Origin: Escherichia coli
Lineage (GTDB): Bacteria > Pseudomonadota > Gammaproteobacteria > Enterobacterales > Enterobacteriaceae
Direction: 5' to 3' (one strand)
Assembly: GCF_030384885.1 (NCBI RefSeq)
Contig: NZ_CP128613.1
Length of the DNA: 64,000 bases
Positions within the stretch are counted from its first letter, which is position 1. Each line of letters starts with the position of its first letter. A model generated the notes under the pieces. The model was not told where the DNA came from. It saw nothing but the letters and a program-made list of their open reading frames with translations, and searched no databases. The translations under genes and the position numbers were made by a program. Below, piece by piece: positions 11,654 to 59,465 of the stretch.

Positions 11654-14623
<2,970 letters not shown>

Positions 14624-19577: not shown

Positions 19578-19879
19578 GATTGTCTGCTCCCCTGTCTTGT
19601 TATGGGAGCAGTATTTCGTTGCTGGTCAGTTTGATAAAGGAATTAAAACGTCTTGTTAAGAACAAAGCGTTTTTAGAAAAAAACTGGCAATGGTTAGCGA
19701 GTTTACGCATTTTGCAGCTTGGGCGAATGTAGCATGCCGATTCACAAACCAGATCAGATGTTCGCTCTCCGGCAAATTATTGCCATTTTGTTACATCCAT
19801 TCCATATCTGTCGCTGGTTGATTGCCAGCGACGCGCCGTGATGCATGATAGGAGAATGAGATAATAAGAGAAGAAAAGT

Positions 19880-20509
19880 ATGATTAGGGTTGTGCTGGTG
19901 GATGACCATGTGGTGGTGCGCTCTGGCTTCGCACAATTACTCTCTCTGGAAGACGATCTGGAGGTCATTGGTCAGTACAGTTGTGCCGCGCAGGCATGGT
20001 CGGCATTAACTCATAATGACGTTAATGTTGCCGTCATTGATATCGCCATGCCGGACGAAAATGGCCTCAGTCTGCTTAAGCGTCTGCGTGCACAAAAACC
20101 GCAATTCCGCGCCATTATTCTTAGCATTTATGACACGCCAACCTTTGTACAAAGCGCTCTGGATGCTGGTGCCAGCGGCTATTTGACCAAACGCTGTGGG
20201 CCGGAAGAGTTAGTGCAGGCGGTGCGCTCGGTCGGGATGGGCGGGCATTATCTCTGCGCCGATGCAATTCGGGCTTTACGCGGCGGCGAGCAACCCGCCC
20301 AGGCGCTGGAAATTCTCACCCCACGAGAACGTGAAGTGTTTGATTTATTAGTCAAAGGCGACAGTGTAAAAGAGATCGCCTTTAAGCTCGAACTCAGCCA
20401 TAAAACGGTACATGTACATCGCGCCAACGTGCTGGGAAAACTGAACTGTCATAGCACCATTGAGCTGGTGCATTTTGCACTCAATCACCATCTGCTGGCG
20501 GGGCATTAA
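19880..20509 (+). CDS. NarL/FixJ-family response regulator, UhpA-like
   Basis: 209 aa; receiver domain (VVLVDDH, acceptor Asp in VIDIAMPD) plus LuxR-type HTH; close in architecture to UhpA. Confidence 0.85.
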   Translation: MIRVVLVDDHVVVRSGFAQLLSLEDDLEVIGQYSCAAQAWSALTHNDVNVAVIDIAMPDENGLSLLKRLRAQKPQFRAIILSIYDTPTFVQSALDAGASGYLTKRCGPEELVQAVRSVGMGGHYLCADAIRALRGGEQPAQALEILTPREREVFDLLVKGDSVKEIAFKLELSHKTVHVHRANVLGKLNCHSTIELVHFALNHHLLAGH

Positions 20510-22050
20510 TGTCGCGTAACCTTCGTCATTGGGTGATTTCGCTGTTTATTGTGCTGGCCTGGGGAAGCGGCTGGCTGATGTTGTGGACGCTCAGCTTTTA
20601 TCTGACCAATAACGGTCAACAGGCAGTGTTATTTCTGCCGCACGGAGTTTACCTCGCTCTTCTTATTTTGCTCTCTCGCCGTTACTGGCCTGCGTTGGTG
20701 CTCCCCCCTTTGCTGATGATGTTCTGGCTGCACAGCGAGCAACTGTTGAACGGCTATCTCATGCTGGCAACGCCGGTTATTAGCCTGCTTCCTGCCATCC
20801 TTGCACAAAACGTCTGGCACCGTTTTCCACTTTACTGGCAGCGTCTGACGTTGCTGCTAGCCTCAGTAACAGCAGCTTCATTGCTGAATACAGCCATGCT
20901 AACCCCTTTTATGTCAGGCCCAATAATGCTGCCCGGTCTGACCTCATTTACCGGCGGCGTATTGTTGACGCCGTTTGTCTATCTCATCTTTGAGTTTCTG
21001 CGCCAGCAGCATCGCTATCAGCTTCTGAGACTCGATACGCATAATCCCCCCTTGCGAACCTCTTTAATCATCTGGTGTAGCCTATTTTTTATTATTGGTA
21101 TCGGCACCCAGATGGTGTTGTCGCCTGAAATCGAACGCCTGCTGCTGATCGTGGTATTTCTACCCAATGTGGTCATGGCCTGGAAATTTGGCTGGCAAGG
21201 TGGCGTACTCTCGGGGCTTTTGGGCAGCATGATGATCACTATTGCCCGCCAGATTGGCGTGGGCTTTAGTAACCTGGTGGAACTGGAGATTTTTCTCGCA
21301 ACCCAGGCATTGCTGGGAATTGGCCTGGGCATTGCCATCAGTCGCCAGCAACATCTGGCGCTAAACCTGCATCATTACCGTCAGCGACTGGAGGCAGAAC
21401 TGGCAGCACGGCGGGCATTGGCTGAAAAGCTGATCCACACCGAGGAAGACACGCGTAAAAGCCTGGCTCGCGAGCTGCACGACGAAATCGGTCAGAACAT
21501 TACCGCCATTCAGATCCAGTCGCAACTGGTGACGCGGGCACGCGATCCGGCGCAAGTTCATTCCGCAGCTAGCCAAATCAACGAACTCGCCCGCCGCATT
21601 CATCTCTCCACCCGCCAGTTGCTGCGCCAGTTGCGGCCACCCGCGCTTGATGAACTGACATTCCGCGAAGCATTACTTCATCTGATTAATGAATTTGCCT
21701 TTAGTGAACGCGGCATTCATTGCCAGTTTACCTATCAACTAACCACCACGCCAGAAAACGAAACGGTTCGCTTTACACTGTATCGGTTATTGCAGGAGTT
21801 ACTCAATAACGTCTGTAAACACGCCGAAGCCAGCGAAGTGACGATTATTCTGCGCCAGCAGGGAGAGATATTGCACCTGGAGGTCAGCGACAACGGTATA
21901 GGAATCGCCAGCGGGAAAATGACCGGATTTGGCATTCAGGGGATGCGTGAACGCGTCAGTGCCCTGGGCGGCGACTTAACGCTCGAAAAACATAACGGTA
22001 CGCGAGTAATTGTTAACCTGCCCACATTTTTGCAACAAATCGCCGGATAA
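20509..22050 (+). CDS. Sensor histidine kinase, UhpB-like (polytopic N-terminus, HisKA_3, HATPase)
   Basis: 513 aa; about 8 N-terminal hydrophobic segments; H-box ELHDEIGQ; ATPase region; start overlaps the upstream stop (TAATG). Confidence 0.85.
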   Translation: MSRNLRHWVISLFIVLAWGSGWLMLWTLSFYLTNNGQQAVLFLPHGVYLALLILLSRRYWPALVLPPLLMMFWLHSEQLLNGYLMLATPVISLLPAILAQNVWHRFPLYWQRLTLLLASVTAASLLNTAMLTPFMSGPIMLPGLTSFTGGVLLTPFVYLIFEFLRQQHRYQLLRLDTHNPPLRTSLIIWCSLFFIIGIGTQMVLSPEIERLLLIVVFLPNVVMAWKFGWQGGVLSGLLGSMMITIARQIGVGFSNLVELEIFLATQALLGIGLGIAISRQQHLALNLHHYRQRLEAELAARRALAEKLIHTEEDTRKSLARELHDEIGQNITAIQIQSQLVTRARDPAQVHSAASQINELARRIHLSTRQLLRQLRPPALDELTFREALLHLINEFAFSERGIHCQFTYQLTTTPENETVRFTLYRLLQELLNNVCKHAEASEVTIILRQQGEILHLEVSDNGIGIASGKMTGFGIQGMRERVSALGGDLTLEKHNGTRVIVNLPTFLQQIAG

Positions 22051-22122
22051 CCAGGAAAAAGTCTTAGGCATCCCGGATTTTCTCTCATCCTCTTTCACTT
22101 TCATTTTCATATAGTCAGCAAC

Positions 22123-23439
22123 ATGGAGACGACCATGCACGCGCGTTCAGCGAGAGAGATTAATCAATGCTACCGGACATTACGTCCGCGATTGCTGATG
22201 TGCATGATTATTGGCTACGCCGCATTTTATCTGACGCGAAAAAGCGTGAATTACGTCCTTCCGGCGCTGCAAACCGACCTCGGACTGGATAAAGGCGACA
22301 TTGGCCTGCTGGGTTCGCTGTTTTATCTCAGCTACGGATTGTCGAAATTTACCGCCGGACTGTGGCATGACAGCCACGGACAACGCGGTTTTATGGGCAT
22401 CGGCTTGTTCGCCACTGGGCTATTGAACGTGGTGTTTGCCTTTGGCGAATCACTTACGCTTCTGCTTGTGGTCTGGACACTGAACGGATTTTTTCAAGGC
22501 TGGGGGTGGCCACCGTGTGCCCGCTTACTGACCCATTGGTACTCCCGTAATGAACGTGGTTTCTGGTGGGGCTGCTGGAATATGTCGATCAACATTGGCG
22601 GAGCGATTATTCCGCTGATTAGCGCCTTTGCCGCCCACTGGTGGGGCTGGCAGGCCGCGATGCTGACACCGGGGATTATCAGCATGGCATTAGGGATCTG
22701 GTTAACGCTACAGCTTAAAGGCACACCCCAGGAAGAGGGATTACCGACGGTGGGTCAGTGGCGTCACGATCCGCTGGAATTACGTCAGGAACAACAAAGT
22801 CCGCCGATGGGTCTGTGGCAAATGTTGCGCACCACAATGCTGCAAAATCCGATGATCTGGCTGCTGGGTGTCTCTTATGTACTGGTTTATGTGATCCGGA
22901 TTGCGTTAAACGACTGGGGCAATATCTGGCTGACGGAAAGCCACGGCGTCAACCTACTCAGCGCCAACGCCACGGTAATGCTGTTTGAAGTGGGCGGCTT
23001 ACTCGGCGCGTTATTTGCCGGATGGGGTTCGGATTTGCTGTTTAGCGGGCAGCGAGCCCCCATGATTTTGCTGTTTACCCTTGGGTTGATGGTTTCGGTC
23101 GCTGCACTCTGGTTGGCACCGGTTCATCACTATGCCCTTCTGGCTGTGTGCTTTTTTACTGTGGGCTTTTTTGTCTTTGGCCCGCAAATGCTGATTGGAC
23201 TTGCGGCAGTGGAATGTGGACACAAAGCTGCGGCGGGTTCAATCACCGGATTTCTCGGTCTGTTCGCCTATCTCGGTGCGGCGCTGGCAGGCTGGCCGTT
23301 GTCGCTGGTTATCGAACGCTACGGCTGGTCGGGAATGTTCAGTTTACTCTCGGTCGCCGCAGTACTTATGGGTTTACTGCTGATGCCGTTACTGATGGCG
23401 GGCATCACCACCACTCACGCTCGAAGGATAAAACAATGA
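22123..23439 (+). CDS. MFS organophosphate:phosphate-antiporter-family protein, UhpC-like sensor
   Basis: 438 aa; many matches to UhpC from memory (FYLTRKS, GVSKF, CARLLT.WYSR.ERG, NDWGN, FGPQMLIG). Alternative start at 22135 has a better SD. Confidence 0.8.
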   Translation: METTMHARSAREINQCYRTLRPRLLMCMIIGYAAFYLTRKSVNYVLPALQTDLGLDKGDIGLLGSLFYLSYGLSKFTAGLWHDSHGQRGFMGIGLFATGLLNVVFAFGESLTLLLVVWTLNGFFQGWGWPPCARLLTHWYSRNERGFWWGCWNMSINIGGAIIPLISAFAAHWWGWQAAMLTPGIISMALGIWLTLQLKGTPQEEGLPTVGQWRHDPLELRQEQQSPPMGLWQMLRTTMLQNPMIWLLGVSYVLVYVIRIALNDWGNIWLTESHGVNLLSANATVMLFEVGGLLGALFAGWGSDLLFSGQRAPMILLFTLGLMVSVAALWLAPVHHYALLAVCFFTVGFFVFGPQMLIGLAAVECGHKAAAGSITGFLGLFAYLGAALAGWPLSLVIERYGWSGMFSLLSVAAVLMGLLLMPLLMAGITTTHARRIKQ

Positions 23440-24467
23440 AAATGCCCCTTACCTCTACTCTGATTGCTTCTGCCGTTGCGCTGGCAACCTTAACGGGTGC
23501 CGCACAAGCGAAAGGTCGACTGGTGGTCTATTGCAGCGCCACTAATGAAATGTGTGAGACCGAAACCAAAGCGTTTGGCGAGAAATATGATGTGAAAACC
23601 TCGTTTATCCGCAACGGCTCCGGTAGCACCCTGGCAAAAGTCGATGCTGAAAAGAAAAACCCACAGGCTGACGTCTGGTACGGCGGCACCTTAGACCCGC
23701 AGTCGCAGGCCGGCGAGATGGGCCTGTTACAGGCATATAAATCGCCTAACCTTGAACAGATCATGGAAAAATTCCGCGATCCGGCAAAAGTGAAAGGAAA
23801 CCTTTCCTCCGCCGTTTATGTGGGGATCCTCGGGTTTGGCGTCAACACAGAGCGTCTGAAAGAGAAAAACCTGCCTGTGCCGAAGTGCTGGAAAGATCTC
23901 ACCAAACCTGAATATAAAGGCGAAATTCAGATTGCCGATCCACAAAGTTCCGGTACCGCCTACACCGCGCTGGCTACCTTTGCGCAGCTGTGGGGGGAAG
24001 ATCAGGCCTTTGATTATCTAAAACAACTGAACGCCAACGTCTCCCAGTACACCAAATCAGGCATAGCCCCGGCACGTAACGCCGCCCGTGGCGAAACGGC
24101 GATTGGTATTGGCTTCCTGCATGACTACTCGCTGGAAAAAGAACAGGGCGCGCCGCTGGAGTTGATTTCCCCGTGTGAAGGTACGGGCTACGAAATTGGC
24201 GGCGTCAGCATTCTGAAAGGCGCGCGCAACCTCGACAACGCCAAACTGTTTGTGGACTGGGTATTATCAAAAGAAGCTCAGGAACTGGCGTGGAAGAAAG
24301 GGAAGTCTTATCAGATCCTGACCAATACCACCGCCGAAACGTCGCCAAATTCGCTGAAGCTCGACGACCTGAAATTAATCAACTACGACATGGATAAATA
24401 CGGTTCAACTGATGTTCGTAAGGCATTAATTAATAAATGGGTCAGCGAAGTGAAGATGGGTAAATAA
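23436..24467 (+). CDS. afuA: ABC transporter periplasmic substrate-binding protein, AfuA/FbpA family
   Basis: Start MKMPLTSTLIASAVALATLTGAAQA at 23436; the ATG overlaps the stop of the MFS gene (ATGA). Upstream 5' extension of the ORF rejected. Confidence 0.75.
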   Translation: MKMPLTSTLIASAVALATLTGAAQAKGRLVVYCSATNEMCETETKAFGEKYDVKTSFIRNGSGSTLAKVDAEKKNPQADVWYGGTLDPQSQAGEMGLLQAYKSPNLEQIMEKFRDPAKVKGNLSSAVYVGILGFGVNTERLKEKNLPVPKCWKDLTKPEYKGEIQIADPQSSGTAYTALATFAQLWGEDQAFDYLKQLNANVSQYTKSGIAPARNAARGETAIGIGFLHDYSLEKEQGAPLELISPCEGTGYEIGGVSILKGARNLDNAKLFVDWVLSKEAQELAWKKGKSYQILTNTTAETSPNSLKLDDLKLINYDMDKYGSTDVRKALINKWVSEVKMGK

Positions 24468-24478
24468 ACCCGCATTGC

Positions 24479-26614
24479 GTGCACTTGCCGGGTGCAGCAC
24501 AGACGCCTGCCCCGGCCAACCATACCGGAACTGCTATGTCACAGACACTTGCACTCCATCCCGCGAAAAAGCGGGATGCGATTTTCCTTTGGGTTTTGCT
24601 GGGCTGGCTGGCATTTATCCTGTTGCCGAGCTGGAGTCTCGATTATGGTCTGCTGGAGTCCACGAGTGATGAGATCCTCGAGGCGTACAGCTGGTCGCAT
24701 TTTAATATCAGCTGGCTGTGGTATTTACTCCCGAGTTTGCTGCTGGTTCGCCCGTTTAATGAGGCCAAACGCGAGCAGCGTAGCCGTCATTATTTTGATG
24801 CAGGCTGGGCATTGCTTTGTATAGCGTTTATGGTCATCAGTGCCACCATCGTTGGCCGCGGTCTAGGCTACGCCGCCATCGTGCTGTTTATCGAATTAAG
24901 CGCGATAATGACGCTGGCCTTAACCCGCCTCGAATGGCTGGGTGGCGACCGCTTTGTGATCGGCTCGCTGATTGCGATTGTGGCGCTGATTGGCATTTTT
25001 ATCGTCTGGCCGAGCATCGCCATTTTTATCCCGATGTTCACCAACGACGCGGGAGGGTTCGCCCCACTGGCGTTTATGAATGTGCTCTCGCAGGCACATA
25101 TTGTTCAGGTGATCGTCAACTCCATCGTCTTATCGATAGCGGTGGGTATTGGCTGTACTTTCTTCGGTCTGGTGCTGGCGATATATACCACGCGCATCGC
25201 TAAACGCAGCGCAGTAATCGGCCGCATCTTTTCCATTCTGCCAATTGTCACGCCACCGTTTGTGGTCGGCTTAGGCGTTACGCTCATGATGGGGCGCTCC
25301 GGCTACATAACGGAATTTATGGTGGAGTGGTTTGGGCTGACCAACACCAACTGGCTGTATGGTTTTACCGGGATCTGGCTGGCACAGGTCCTGGCATTTA
25401 CGCCAATGGCTTTTATGATCCTCGATGGGGCCATTAAAACCATTCATCCCTCGCTGGAAGAAGCCTCCTACACCCTGCGCGCCAGCCGCTGGCAAACCTT
25501 TAACGGTGTGTTTGTGCCGTTGTTAAAGCCCGCGCTTGCCAATGCCTTTTTAATCGTCGTGGTACAGTCACTGGCTGACTTCAGTAACCCGCTGGTGCTT
25601 GGCGGCAACTTCGACGTACTGGCGACGCAAATTTACTTCTACATTACCGGCTCGCAGCTGGATTATCAGGCCGCCAGCACCCTTGGCGCTTTCCTGCTGC
25701 TGTTCTCGCTACTGGTGTTCTGCGTCCAGTATATGTGGATTGGTAAACGCTCTTACGTCACGGTTTCCGGAAAGTCCTACCGCGGCGATGTCCAGCCACT
25801 ACCGGTCACCCTGGTGTGGAGCGTGGTCGCCATACTTGCGATATGGATTGCCTTTAACGCCCTGCTCTATGGCAGCATTTTCTACGGCAGCTTCACCGTG
25901 AACTGGGGCGTAGACTACACCCTAACGCTGGATAACTTTATCAAGTTATTTGGTCAGGGGATGAGCGACGGCGCATGGCCTTCACTGTTAGATACCTTGC
26001 TCTACGCCGGGATTGCCGCACCCATTACCGCTATTTTTGGCCTGCTCATCGCCTGGGTGGTGGTGCGCCAACAATTCAAAGGCAAAAAGACCATCGAGTT
26101 CACCACCATGTTGTGCTTTGCCGTACCGGGTACAGTGGCGGGTGTCTCGTATATTCTTGCCTTTAATAGCGCCCCAGTCTATCTCACCGGAACGGCAGCA
26201 ATTGTGATTATCTCGATGGTGATGCGCAACGTTCCGGTGGGTATTCGCGCCGGGATTGCAGGTCTGGGGCAGATCGACAAATCGCTGGATGAAGCCTCAC
26301 TTAGCCTGCGTGCGGGTTCCCTGCGAACCATTACGCACATTTTACTGCCGTTGTTACGCCCAGCTATTCTCTCGGCCCTGATTTACAGCTTTGTGCGGGC
26401 TATCACGACGGTCAGCGCCATCGTCTTTCTCGTCACGCCGGACACACGCGTGGCAACCGCCTACATCCTTAACCGCGTAGAAGACGGCGAATATGGCGTA
26501 GCCATCGCCTACGGTTCGATTCTGATCGTGGTGATGCTGGCGATTATTTTCCTCTTTGACTGGCTGATCGGTGAAGCACGTATTTCCCGTTCTAAAGCCA
26601 AAAACCAGGCGTAA
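24479..26614 (+). CDS. afuB: ABC transporter permease with two fused transmembrane domains, AfuB/FbpB family
   Basis: 711 aa maximal ORF, highly hydrophobic with duplicated permease halves; true start may be the internal ATG at 24536. Confidence 0.8.
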
Positions 26615-26625
26615 TGGAGCGCACT

Positions 26626-27672
26626 ATGAGTCAGAAAAATTTTGTGGAACTGCGCAACGTCACTAAACGATTCGGCAGTAATACGGTTATCGACAATATC
26701 AATCTCACCATCCCACAAGGGCAAATGGTGACGCTGCTCGGTCCTTCCGGATGCGGCAAAACCACCATTCTGCGTCTGGTTGCCGGGCTGGAAAAACCGA
26801 GCGAAGGGCAAATTTTTATAGATGGCGAAGATGTCACGCATCGTTCCATTCAGCAACGCGATATCTGCATGGTGTTTCAGTCATACGCTCTGTTCCCACA
26901 TATGTCGCTGGGCGAAAACGTTGGCTATGGGTTGAAAATGCTTGGCGTGTCGCGTAGTGAAGTGAAGCAGCGGGTGAAAGATGCGCTAGCAATGGTGGAT
27001 CTGGAAGGATTCGAAGACCGCTATGTCGACCAGATTTCCGGTGGTCAGCAACAGCGTGTGGCTCTGGCCCGTGCGTTGATCCTTAAGCCTAAAGTGCTGC
27101 TGTTTGATGAGCCGTTAAGTAACCTCGATGCCAACCTGCGTCGCAGCATGCGCGATAAAATCCGCGAGCTGCAAAAGCAATTTAACATCACTTCGCTCTA
27201 TGTGACTCACGATCAAAGTGAAGCTTTCGCGGTGTCCGACACCGTGTTGGTGATGAATAAAGGTCACATCATGCAAATTGGCTCGCCGCAGGATCTCTAT
27301 CGTCAGCCCGCCTCCCGCTTTATGGCAAGTTTTATGGGCGACGCCAACCTGTTCCCGGCGAACTTTAGCGAAGAGTATGTCGATATCTACGGTTATCGCC
27401 TGCCGCGCGCGGCGCATTTCCCGGCGCAAGGTAGCGGCACCGTCGGCGTTCGCCCGGAAGCCATCACCTTAAGCAATCACGGCGAAGAGAGTCAGCGTTG
27501 TGTTATTCGCCATGTCGCCTACATGGGGCCGCAGTACGAAGTGACCGTAGAATGGCATGGTCAGGAGATTTTATTGCAAGTCAACGCCACCCGTTTACAG
27601 CCCGATATTGGTGAACACTATTACCTCGAAATCCATCCTTACGGGATGTTTGTTTTAGCGGATGCGGCATAA
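26626..27672 (+). CDS. afuC: ABC transporter ATP-binding protein, AfuC/FbpC family
   Basis: Start [11 protein letters not shown] with GGAG 7 nt upstream; Walker [10 protein letters not shown]; signature [13 protein letters not shown]; Walker B LLFDEP. Confidence 0.85.
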
Positions 27673-27754
27673 AAATAGCACATAAACGGTCCCAACCTGT
27701 CTTGAGAGACCGTTCACCTGTTTAGACGTCGGACAACAATTATTCTCCGGTGTT

Positions 27755-27807
27755 ATATACTATAGGGGGGTATGCATTGACATATGGCATACCCCCCTAT
27801 AGTATAT
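27755..27807. promoter_or_regulatory. FrmR operator: 21-bp inverted repeat with G6/C6 tracts
   Basis: ATATACTATAGGGGGGTATGC - 11 bp - GCATACCCCCCTATAGTATAT, ending 25 bp upstream of the frmR start. Confidence 0.6.
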
Positions 27808-27831
27808 TGCGTGCAGATGATGAGGTGCGAA

Positions 27832-28107
27832 ATGCCCAGTACTCCGGAAGAGAAGAAAAAGGTCCTTACTCGAGTTCGTCGTATTCGGGGGCAAATTGAT
27901 GCTCTGGAACGGTCGCTGGAGGGTGATGCCGAATGCCGTGCCATACTCCAACAGATCGCTGCCGTTCGGGGCGCGGCTAACGGGCTGATGGCAGAAGTGC
28001 TTGAAAGCCATATCCGGGAAACGTTTGACCGAAATGACTGCTACAGCCGCGAAGTCAGCCAATCCGTTGACGACACTATTGAACTGGTTCGTGCCTATCT
28101 TAAATAG
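27832..28107 (+). CDS. frmR: Formaldehyde-responsive repressor FrmR (RcnR/CsoR family)
   Basis: ORF 27784-28107; start [27 protein letters not shown] at 27832; 91 aa. Confidence 0.9.
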
Positions 28108-28111
28108 CTGA

Positions 28112-29251
<1,140 letters not shown>

Positions 29252-29343: not shown

Positions 29344-30177
29344 ATGGAACTCATTGAAAAACATGCCAGCTTTGGCGGCTGGCAAAATGTGTATCGGCAT
29401 TATTCCCAATCACTGAAATGTGAAATGAATGTCGGCGTCTATCTCCCACCAAAAGCCGGGAATGAAAAATTGCCGGTACTGTACTGGCTTTCGGGCCTGA
29501 CCTGTAACGAGCAGAATTTCATTACTAAATCGGGGATGCAACGTTACGCGGCTGAGCACAACATTATTGTTGTTGCGCCAGACACCAGTCCGCGAGGCAG
29601 TCATGTCGCAGATGCCGACCGTTACGATCTCGGGCAAGGTGCCGGGTTTTACCTGAACGCAACGCAAGCGCCGTGGAATGAACATTACAAAATGTATGAT
29701 TATATCCACAACGAGTTGCCGGATTTAGTGATGCAACATTTTCCGGCAACGACCAGAAAGTCTATCTCAGGTCATTCTATGGGCGGGCTGGGCGCGCTGG
29801 TGCTGGCGTTACGTAACCCAGATGAATATGTCAGCGTCTCGGCGTTTTCGCCCATTGTCTCCCCATCGCAAGTACCGTGGGGACAGCAAGCCTTTGCCGC
29901 ATATCTTGGTGAAAATAAAGATGCCTGGTTGGATTACGATCCGGTTAGCCTTATTTCACAAGGTCAACGCGTTGCGGAAATCATGGTTGATCAAGGATTG
30001 AGTGATGATTTTTACGCAGAACAGCTGCGGACTCCAAATCTTGAAAAGATCTGCCAGGAGATGAATATCAAAACGTTAATCCGTTATCACGAGGGTTATG
30101 ATCACAGCTATTATTTTGTCTCCAGTTTTATTGGCGAGCATATTGCCTACCACGCCAATAAACTGAATATGCGTTGA
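29344..30177 (+). CDS. frmB: S-formylglutathione hydrolase
   Basis: 277 aa; esterase motif GHSMGG. Confidence 0.95.
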   Translation: MELIEKHASFGGWQNVYRHYSQSLKCEMNVGVYLPPKAGNEKLPVLYWLSGLTCNEQNFITKSGMQRYAAEHNIIVVAPDTSPRGSHVADADRYDLGQGAGFYLNATQAPWNEHYKMYDYIHNELPDLVMQHFPATTRKSISGHSMGGLGALVLALRNPDEYVSVSAFSPIVSPSQVPWGQQAFAAYLGENKDAWLDYDPVSLISQGQRVAEIMVDQGLSDDFYAEQLRTPNLEKICQEMNIKTLIRYHEGYDHSYYFVSSFIGEHIAYHANKLNMR

Positions 30178-30184
30178 GCATCCG

Positions 30185-30392
30185 CGCACGCCAGCCGGAT
30201 GCGGCGTGAACGCCTTATCCGCCTACATTTCGCCCATAAACCGTAGGCATGATAAGACGCGCATAGCGTCGCATCAGGCATCTGCGCACAACTGCCGGAT
30301 GCGGCGTGAACGCCTTATCCGGCCTACATTTCGCCCATGAGCCGTAGGCATGATAAGACGCGCAAAGCATCGCATCAGGCATCTGTGCACGG
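30185..30392. repeat. REP/BIME cluster, two tandem units
   Basis: Duplicated about 100-bp unit with GCCGGATGCGGCGTGAACGCCTTATCCGGCCTAC-type palindromes between frmB and yaiL. Confidence 0.8.
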
Positions 30393-32334: not shown

Positions 32335-32535
32335 GCCTACGGACGAAAGTAGGCCGGATAAGGCGTTTATGCCGCATCCGGCAGTCGTGCACAGATGCCT
32401 GATGCGACGCTGACGCGTCTTATCATGCCTACAAATTCCCGCGCCATCCGTAGGCCGGATAAGGCGTTTATGCCGCATCCGGCAGTCGTGCGCCATTGCC
32501 TGATGCGACGCTGACGCGTCTTATCAGGCCTGGGA
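32335..32535. repeat. REP/BIME cluster, two tandem units
   Basis: Repeated GGCCGGATAAGGCGTTTATGCCGCATCCGGCAGTCGTGC ... GCCTGATGCGACGCTGACGCGTCTTATCA units between mhpT and mhpE. Confidence 0.8.
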
Positions 32536-54139: not shown

Positions 54140-54297
54140 GAAATTCCCCCTTTTTGCTGTTTGAAACCCAAAAAATCCGCCGCATTCTATTCATCTGAAG
54201 ATAAAAAGCAATCGTTTTCGTGGAGGGGGTATATTTTTTATATGGATGAATGCGGAAAAGTGGATAAAAACTTATTTGAGAAAAAATGGGTACACAT

Positions 54298-54645
54298 GAT
54301 AAGACACGCCTGCGTCGCATCAGGCATCTGCGCACGGTGTCGGATGCGGCGCGTGCGCCTTATCCGACCTGCGGTTCAGGCCTGTAGGCATGATAAGACG
54401 CGTCAGCGTCACATCAGGCATCTGCGCACGGTGTCGGATGCGCCGCGTGCGCCTTATCCGACCTACGGTTCAGGCCTGTAGGCATGATAAGACGCGCCTG
54501 CGTTGCATCAGGCATCTACGCATAGCTGTCGGATGCGCCGCGTGCGCCTTATCCGACCTGCGGTTCAGGCCTGTAGGGATGATAAGACGCGTCAGCGTCG
54601 CATCAGGCATCTGCGCACGGTGTCGGACGCGCCACACGACACATC
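54298..54645. repeat. BIME/REP tandem array, about 3.6 units with 94-95 bp period
   Basis: Unit CGCATCAGGCATCTGCGCACGGTGTCGGATGCG.CGCGTGCGCCTTATCCGACCTGCGGTTCAGGCCTGTAGGCATGATAAGACGCG repeats from about 54316, 54410, 54505 and 54599. Confidence 0.85.
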
Positions 54646-59275: not shown

Positions 59276-59465
59276 GTTGTCGGATGCGACGCTATGCGTC
59301 TTATCCGACCTACAGTTCAGTTCATCCCGTAGGCCTGATAAGCCGCGTCAGCGACGCATCAGGCATCGGTTGTCGGATGCGACGTCATGCGTCTTATCCG
59401 ACCTACAGTTCAGTTCATCCCGTAGGCCTGATAAGCCGCGTCAGCGGCGCATCAGGCATCGGTTG
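59276..59465. repeat. BIME/REP tandem array, two units with 94 bp period
   Basis: TTGTCGGATGCGACG..ATGCGTCTTATCCGACCTACAGTTCAGTTCATCCCGTAGGCCTGATAAGCCGCGTCAGCG.CGCATCAGGCATCGG repeated from 59276 and 59370. Confidence 0.8.

Follow-up and report, generated by a model that had tools for sequence, protein, structure and literature searches.

What is the role of the long, perfect palindrome that lies between an accessory gene cassette and the formaldehyde-detoxification operon frmRAB in this Escherichia coli genome? A sequence-only reading had taken it for one extended operator of the repressor FrmR, recognized through its G and C tracts, and for the point at which conserved frmRAB control begins. 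We followed up this proposal in the whole 64-kb stretch of DNA that was analysed (the window, to which all coordinates of the locus refer), in complete E. coli genomes, in frmR promoters of other Proteobacteria and in published work on the frm promoter (Pfrm). The palindrome turns out to be real, functional and correctly read, but ordinary.

The palindrome and the predicted promoter inside it

The 53-bp palindrome at 27755–27807 has the arrangement ATATACTATAGGGGGGTATGC-ATTGACATATG-GCATACCCCCCTATAGTATAT (arm, spacer, arm, as read from the window). Using a repeat search, the arms were located at 27755–27775 (ATATACTATAGGGGGGTATGC) and 27787–27807 (GCATACCCCCCTATAGTATAT), each 21 nt long, 100% complementary and 11 nt apart, with the G6 tract at 27765–27770 and the C6 tract at 27792–27797. 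The cognate CsoR/RcnR-family repressor gene, frmR, begins 24 nt downstream of the palindrome (ATG at 27832–27834; start minus end gives 25). Repeat search and start codon together confirm the earlier description of 21-bp arms, an 11-bp spacer and 25 bp to the frmR start. In the whole 64-kb window, no second inverted repeat has perfect arms of 14 nt or more that are separated by no more than 60 nt. Because it is the only such repeat and simple arithmetic (64000 x 61 / 4^21) puts the chance expectation for 21-nt arms at about 1e-6, a chance origin of the palindrome can be excluded. Further, the palindrome occurs at a median of one place per E. coli genome and, being single-copy, was rejected as a repetitive palindromic element of the REP/BIME, MITE or IS terminal repeat kind.

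All three genes of the operon are encoded on the plus strand. The 91-aa product of frmR (27832–28107) contains Pro2, Cys35 and His60, matches the NCBIfam equivalog NF008464 with 189 bits against a cut-off of 133 as well as Pfam PF02583, and has the same protein accession as K-12 FrmR (WP_001141271.1). It is followed by frmA (28142–29251), encoding S-(hydroxymethyl)glutathione dehydrogenase (TIGR02818, 741 bits), and by frmB/fghA (29344–30177), encoding S-formylglutathione hydrolase (TIGR02821, 397 bits). An in-frame ATG in the palindrome spacer would add 16 codons to frmR (27784–27831) and yield a 107-aa open reading frame. Use of this upstream ATG is unlikely because the FrmR model aligns end to end over residues 1 to 91 and sensing needs the N-terminal Pro2.

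Each arm holds one ATAC-N9-GTAT box, as identified by pattern search. The distal box 1 (27757–27773, plus strand), ATAC-TATAGGGGG-GTAT, contains the G6 tract, follows the box definition of PMC5146963 and is kept in the two-box promoters of other genera. The proximal box 2 (27789–27805, minus strand), which reads ATAC-CCCCCTATA-GTAT on the plus strand and is additionally supported by cross-genus comparison, contains the C6 tract. Both tracts are enclosed by ATAC...GTAT as in the type I operator definition for the CsoR/RcnR family (PMC5146963), and the site in each arm has a G-rich core beside a TATAG motif. The boxes are inverted relative to each other and 32 bp apart from start to start, which corresponds to about three helical turns; no further copies of the box were found elsewhere in the 64-kb window. 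The 32-bp distance is the same in K-12, with no indels, and the 31 bp between box centres given in PMC5146963 represents a trivial counting discrepancy.

A consensus scan predicted a -35 hexamer, TTGACA, in the inter-box spacer (27777–27782, plus strand) and a -10 hexamer, TAGTAT, within box 2 (27800–27805, plus strand), with 10 of 12 consensus matches and a 17-nt spacer. This was the only sigma-70-like promoter detected between 27500 and 28200, and it falls inside the palindrome. Placing the palindrome centre (27781) at -29 from the predicted start site, as in PMC5146963, puts the frm start near 27810, consistent with the predicted -10 hexamer. A Shine-Dalgarno sequence, GAGG (27822–27825, plus strand), is located 6 nt 5' of the frmR ATG, and the surrounding 'gtgaggt' is conserved in enterobacterial homologues. 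With the predicted -35 hexamer between the boxes and the -10 hexamer in the right one, bound FrmR should occlude the promoter. The identification of the palindrome as an operator stands, but it is better described as two boxes, one per arm, than as one long site, and it contains the predicted core promoter as well.

Alternatively, the palindrome might work chiefly through its structure, extruded as a cruciform or folded into an RNA hairpin, and independently of FrmR. It would then insulate against or terminate read-through from the upstream cassette, or serve as a recombination hotspot that fixes the island boundary. The predicted hairpin is very stable, with -21.4 kcal/mol for the single-stranded DNA fold (z = -6.2 compared with shuffles) and -40.7 kcal/mol for RNA. 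However, neither strand has a T-run after the stem, and a scan for terminators was empty at the palindrome, based on which a rho-independent terminator or insulator was rejected. A curated structured RNA family was rejected too, as a search of Rfam 15 returned no family at the palindrome apart from miRNA hairpin models with 19–20 bits against thresholds of 73–100 bits. Moreover, the frm mRNA should exclude the palindrome because the predicted start site is located downstream of it. Considering also the promoter comparison and the homology boundaries outlined below, we judge a mainly structural role to be very improbable.

Repression by FrmR at Pfrm

Denby et al. (2016, Sci Rep 6:38879, PMC5146963) described the large inverted repeat of E. 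coli Pfrm, the K-12 counterpart of the palindrome, as two type I FrmR sites of the form ATAC-N9-GTAT (their Fig. 6a). Using a K-12 promoter fragment, bio-layer interferometry and in vitro transcription, they observed that FrmR binds Pfrm with a Kd of ~220 nM compared with ~3600 nM for a control promoter, that formaldehyde dissociates the FrmR-Pfrm complex and that FrmR alone represses Pfrm in vitro, a repression which is relieved by formaldehyde. In vivo, a Pfrm reporter was induced 28-fold by formaldehyde while deletion of frmR resulted in derepression (PMC5146963). The E. coli and Salmonella frm promoters were aligned by Osman et al. (2016, J Biol Chem 291:19502, PMC5016687), with the G/C tracts and T/A-rich inverted repeats marked (Fig. 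2D). For the Salmonella operator, mutating one flanking repeat abolished binding, and two FrmR tetramers were found per operator (PMC5016687).

The element, its box structure and its regulator have been known since 2016. The frm promoter is already in use as a formaldehyde biosensor, and Rohlhill et al. 2017 reportedly carried out a sort-seq study of Pfrm. In the literature that we examined, neither a base-resolution FrmR footprint nor a mutational analysis of the E. coli site was encountered.

For the K-12 allele, others have demonstrated that FrmR binds Pfrm specifically, that formaldehyde releases it and that Pfrm is repressed both in vitro and in the cell. To this we add the sequence anatomy of the present locus, which is nearly identical to K-12, and the finding that the box is conserved among frmR promoters. 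Taken together, the palindrome is very probably the operator-promoter of the frmRAB formaldehyde-detoxification operon, with FrmR occluding the promoter at two boxes. Without formaldehyde, tetrameric FrmR would sit on the boxes, most simply with one tetramer per box, and block RNA polymerase. In this way, FrmR would repress its own gene along with the rest of the operon. Formaldehyde would then cross-link Pro2 to Cys35 between FrmR subunits and remodel the DNA-binding face, upon which FrmR would be released from the DNA and frmRAB transcribed. Binding was measured on a whole promoter fragment, and contacts are assigned to the two boxes by inference from FrmR of Salmonella and RcnR of E. coli; the exact bases contacted and the number of tetramers bound in E. 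coli are likewise putative, as are the promoter hexamers and the start site.

A different regulator, either the paralogue RcnR or an unrelated factor, might be thought to occupy the palindrome while FrmR acts elsewhere, given that RcnR is the nearest FrmR paralogue (the RcnR model scores 68 bits on FrmR) and also recognizes G6 tracts flanked by TACT/AGTA. Yet the RcnR motif TACTGGGGGGNAGTA (TACT-G6-N-AGTA) has no match at the palindrome even when three mismatches are allowed, and cross-recognition by RcnR was rejected on these grounds. The ability of FrmR alone to repress Pfrm in vitro, the derepression seen upon frmR deletion in vivo (PMC5146963) and the co-occurrence of the box with frmR in most of the loci described below argue in the same direction, leaving action of another regulator at this site extremely unlikely.

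The box across frmR promoters

We compared 80 frmR loci from Gamma-, Beta- and Alphaproteobacteria, sampled via a protein-guided scan. In 65 of the 80 loci, the 110 nt preceding frmR contain ATAC-N9-GTAT, with 83 boxes in 8,800 nt of upstream sequence compared with 3 in the remaining 246,564 nt of locus sequence. Most of the other 15 loci contain visibly related sequences, for example GTACTCCCCCGGAGTAT or N8/N10 variants. Alpha- and betaproteobacterial promoters have a single box, as do most proteobacterial frmR promoters; that of Brucella and Ochrobactrum, TTGACATACTCCCCCATAGTATAT, can be aligned position by position with the right arm of the E. coli palindrome. Box 2 is homologous to the single box of alpha- and betaproteobacterial frmR promoters.

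The sequence-only reading had tied its operator to the presence of the palindrome at other frmR promoters. This is borne out for the box. Two boxes are found in a minority of loci, comprising 18 with two boxes of the ATAC-N9-GTAT form and three Citrobacter/Klebsiella-type loci with an N10 distal box. Two-box loci mostly belong to Enterobacterales, with additional examples in Aeromonas, Deefgea and Paraburkholderia. Nearly all two-box promoters have a TTGAC -35 element between the boxes and a start-to-start distance of 32–35 bp; deviations are seen in Paraburkholderia (L042; 23 bp, no TTGAC), the N10 type (~40 bp, TTGATC) and Deefgea (TTGCAT). The boxes are inverted in most two-box loci, resulting in a long palindrome. 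An uninterrupted G6/C6 tract is confined to Escherichia, with GTGGAG/CTCCAC in other genera and in plasmid modules. The proposal that G/C tracts within AT-rich inverted repeats form an RcnR/CsoR-family site for FrmR is supported by the published Pfrm operator and by the FrmR equivalog downstream, but the G6/C6 tract itself is not a general requirement.

In Erwinia endophytica (L018, about 1390–1475), the boxes are arranged as direct repeats, ATACTGGGATATAGTAT ... ATACTGGTGTATAGTAT, around a TTGACC -35 element. Their central 9 nt are identical at 7 of 9 positions when read direct and at 2 of 9 when read inverted. This arrangement constitutes a natural test of the need for a palindrome as such.

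In a set of 11 distinct two-box promoters, changes confined to one arm (33) outnumbered two-sided ones (19), and the two-sided changes reduce to one or two lineage splits. With so few splits and one-sided changes being commoner, arm covariation was not considered convincing evidence of structure. What has been conserved is the box and where it sits with respect to the promoter, rather than hairpin potential. The two-box palindrome is mainly an Enterobacterales and plasmid arrangement, a lineage-specific elaboration. These observations also weigh against a mainly structural palindrome, since the box motif is conserved rather than arm complementarity, and the single-box and Erwinia direct-repeat promoters are without a hairpin.

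The same comparison bears on how FrmR engages the two boxes. One FrmR tetramer could contact both boxes with both of its faces, bending or looping the 32-bp interval, in which case the whole palindrome would be the functional unit. This idea was raised in PMC5146963 in view of a distance between box centres that exceeds the one at rcnR-rcnA, and it would fit the inverted orientation and 32–35 bp spacing kept in most enterobacterial two-box promoters as well as the identity of the arms over 17–21 nt in Escherichia and in the plasmid type. On the other hand, Salmonella FrmR binds as two tetramers per 33-bp operator (PMC5016687), the boxes of Erwinia endophytica are direct instead of inverted, a single box suffices in most proteobacterial frmR promoters and one-sided arm changes are in excess across genera. 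We consider contact of one tetramer with both boxes unlikely, and favour independent occupancy of the two boxes as the simplest form of FrmR repression.

Two further observations were made in the sampled loci. In several Lysobacter/Xanthomonadaceae loci (L032, L036–L038, L055, L058 and L080, about 1480–1503), a box-like TATACTCCCCCCCACTATG abuts the tblastn-inferred frmR start; either the true frmR start is located elsewhere, or transcripts have very short leaders or none. In addition, the frmR upstream regions of Maribrevibacterium harenarium (L013, marine Oceanospirillales) and a Citrobacter freundii MAG (L008) are identical, suggesting that a recent horizontal transfer took place or that one of the assemblies is contaminated.

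Alleles, module boundaries and known systems

Of 5426 complete E. coli genomes, 5352 have a match to the palindrome region, typically at a single place. The alignment with K-12 frmR upstream DNA that had been proposed as a check was carried out and showed 51 of 53 palindrome positions to be identical, with no indels and with both boxes unchanged. At both differing positions K-12 has an A, in place of the spacer G at 27786 and of the C at 27788. The latter is base two of the right arm, and owing to it the K-12 arms form 19 perfect pairs and one mismatch. Allele frequencies were determined by counting exact matches over 58–67 bp. The majority E. coli allele, with A27786 and C27788 and therefore perfect 21-nt arms, accounts for 3554 of 5364 records (~66%), compared with 1033 records for the K-12 allele and its one arm mismatch. 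The allele of the window, which has perfect 21-nt arms and G27786, is present in 6 records, making this spacer variant between the -35 and -10 hexamers rare. Over 16 kb, the window shows 99.994% identity to strain 2013C-4282.

In the interval from tauA to frmR, the K-12 segment yaiS-yaiP-IS2-yaiO is replaced by an 8.1-kb accessory cassette (19616–27739, plus strand), as delimited by blastn against K-12. Its products are a response regulator, a MASE1 histidine kinase, a UhpC-like MFS protein and the substrate-binding protein, permease and 'FbpC' of an ABC transporter. In spite of the 'ferric' annotation, the UhpC-like and two-component neighbours, viewed in the light of work on AfuABC, suggest that this transporter may take up sugar phosphates rather than iron. 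The last transporter gene, fbpC, ends at 27672. On the left side, K-12 homology stops at 19615, just past tauA, and on the right it resumes at 27740, placing the cassette edge 15 bp upstream of the palindrome; the fbpC side of this junction is present in 450 of 5426 E. coli genomes. The earlier claim that the accessory block ends immediately upstream of the palindrome is borne out by these data.

Elsewhere in the window, K-12 homology is broken at 12996–14541, where K-12 has an IS3-disrupted autotransporter pseudogene and the window differs. Mutually similar repeats of ~100 nt (75–94% identity) are found at 30184–30382, 32349–32531, 54297–54631 and 59278–59460 and match the K-12 fghA-yaiL intergenic region; these clusters are probably REP/BIME-type elements.

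frmR-frmA modules with the palindrome were detected on 532 plasmid records, mostly conjugative. Plasmid-borne frm modules become alignable with the window at 27756, one base inside the left edge of the palindrome. Together with the K-12 boundary at 27740, this bears out the view that the element marks the start of conserved frmRAB control. On plasmids of Klebsiella, Enterobacter, Citrobacter and other genera, the frmR-frmA-VOC-fghA module adjoins a Tn3-family transposase. The K. pneumoniae plasmid pC268_1 (L083, 2440–2600) carries its own perfect two-box palindrome, TATACTATAGTGGAGTAT-N17-ATACTCCACTATAGTATA, and the plasmid-type operator is also seen in genome loci of Edwardsiella, Enterobacter and Morganella (L010, L012 and L020).

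The homology breaks close to the palindrome, 15 bp upstream of it for K-12 and one base inside its left edge for the plasmid modules, would fit a recombination hotspot at an island boundary, but purifying selection by itself is expected to end homology where the functional elements of a conserved operon begin. The palindrome may also be more than two independent boxes. Its near-perfect arm symmetry differs between lineages, being G6/C6 in Escherichia and GTGGAG/CTCCAC on plasmids, and includes positions outside the ATAC...GTAT core; it could be kept by arm-to-arm gene conversion or by one tetramer clamping both boxes. In addition, the palindrome might help to determine where the mobile frm module recombines. 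We regard this possibility as quite improbable. On the chromosome as well as on conjugative plasmids, the frm module has this operator as its fixed left edge.

ATAC-N9-GTAT represents a strong and easily searched marker of FrmR regulons across Proteobacteria, and the G6/C6 tract is not essential to the operator design. What is new lies in side observations, namely the range of alleles, a G tract specific to one lineage, the differently oriented boxes of Erwinia and an operator that serves as the fixed border of a mobile module.

When compared with known systems, the locus resembles K-12 Pfrm in genomic position, architecture, FrmR protein, the two ATAC-N9-GTAT boxes, their spacing and the -35 element in the spacer. 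K-12 differs by the A at the position of 27788, where the C of the window results in perfect arms, by the absence of the rare G27786 and by its upstream neighbour, which is yaiO instead of the fbpC cassette. The Salmonella Typhimurium frmRA operator (Osman et al. 2015, 2016; PMC5016687) likewise has a C6 tract within T/A-rich inverted repeats, with a repeat needed for binding, and is located 5' of a formaldehyde-sensing FrmR. However, it consists of a single C6 site on a 33-bp fragment which nevertheless takes up two tetramers, whereas the E. coli box is duplicated and inverted; further, Salmonella FrmR is only ~52% identical and the promoters were called 'distinct' by the authors (PMC5016687). 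The rcnR-rcnA region, as far as the work of Iwig and Chivers (2009) is represented by its citation in PMC5146963, provides the E. coli example of tandem type I sites, bound by RcnR. On the same basis, it differs in its motif (TACT-G6-N-AGTA), in a centre spacing of 19 bp compared with 32 bp here and in responding to metal instead of formaldehyde. Finally, the frmR-frmA-(VOC)-fghA modules on Enterobacterales plasmids share the two-box palindrome around TTGAC and an equal distance to frmR, but have an interrupted G tract (GTGGAG/CTCCAC), a 17-nt spacer, a start-to-start distance of 34, ~81% DNA identity and adjoining Tn3-family transposons.
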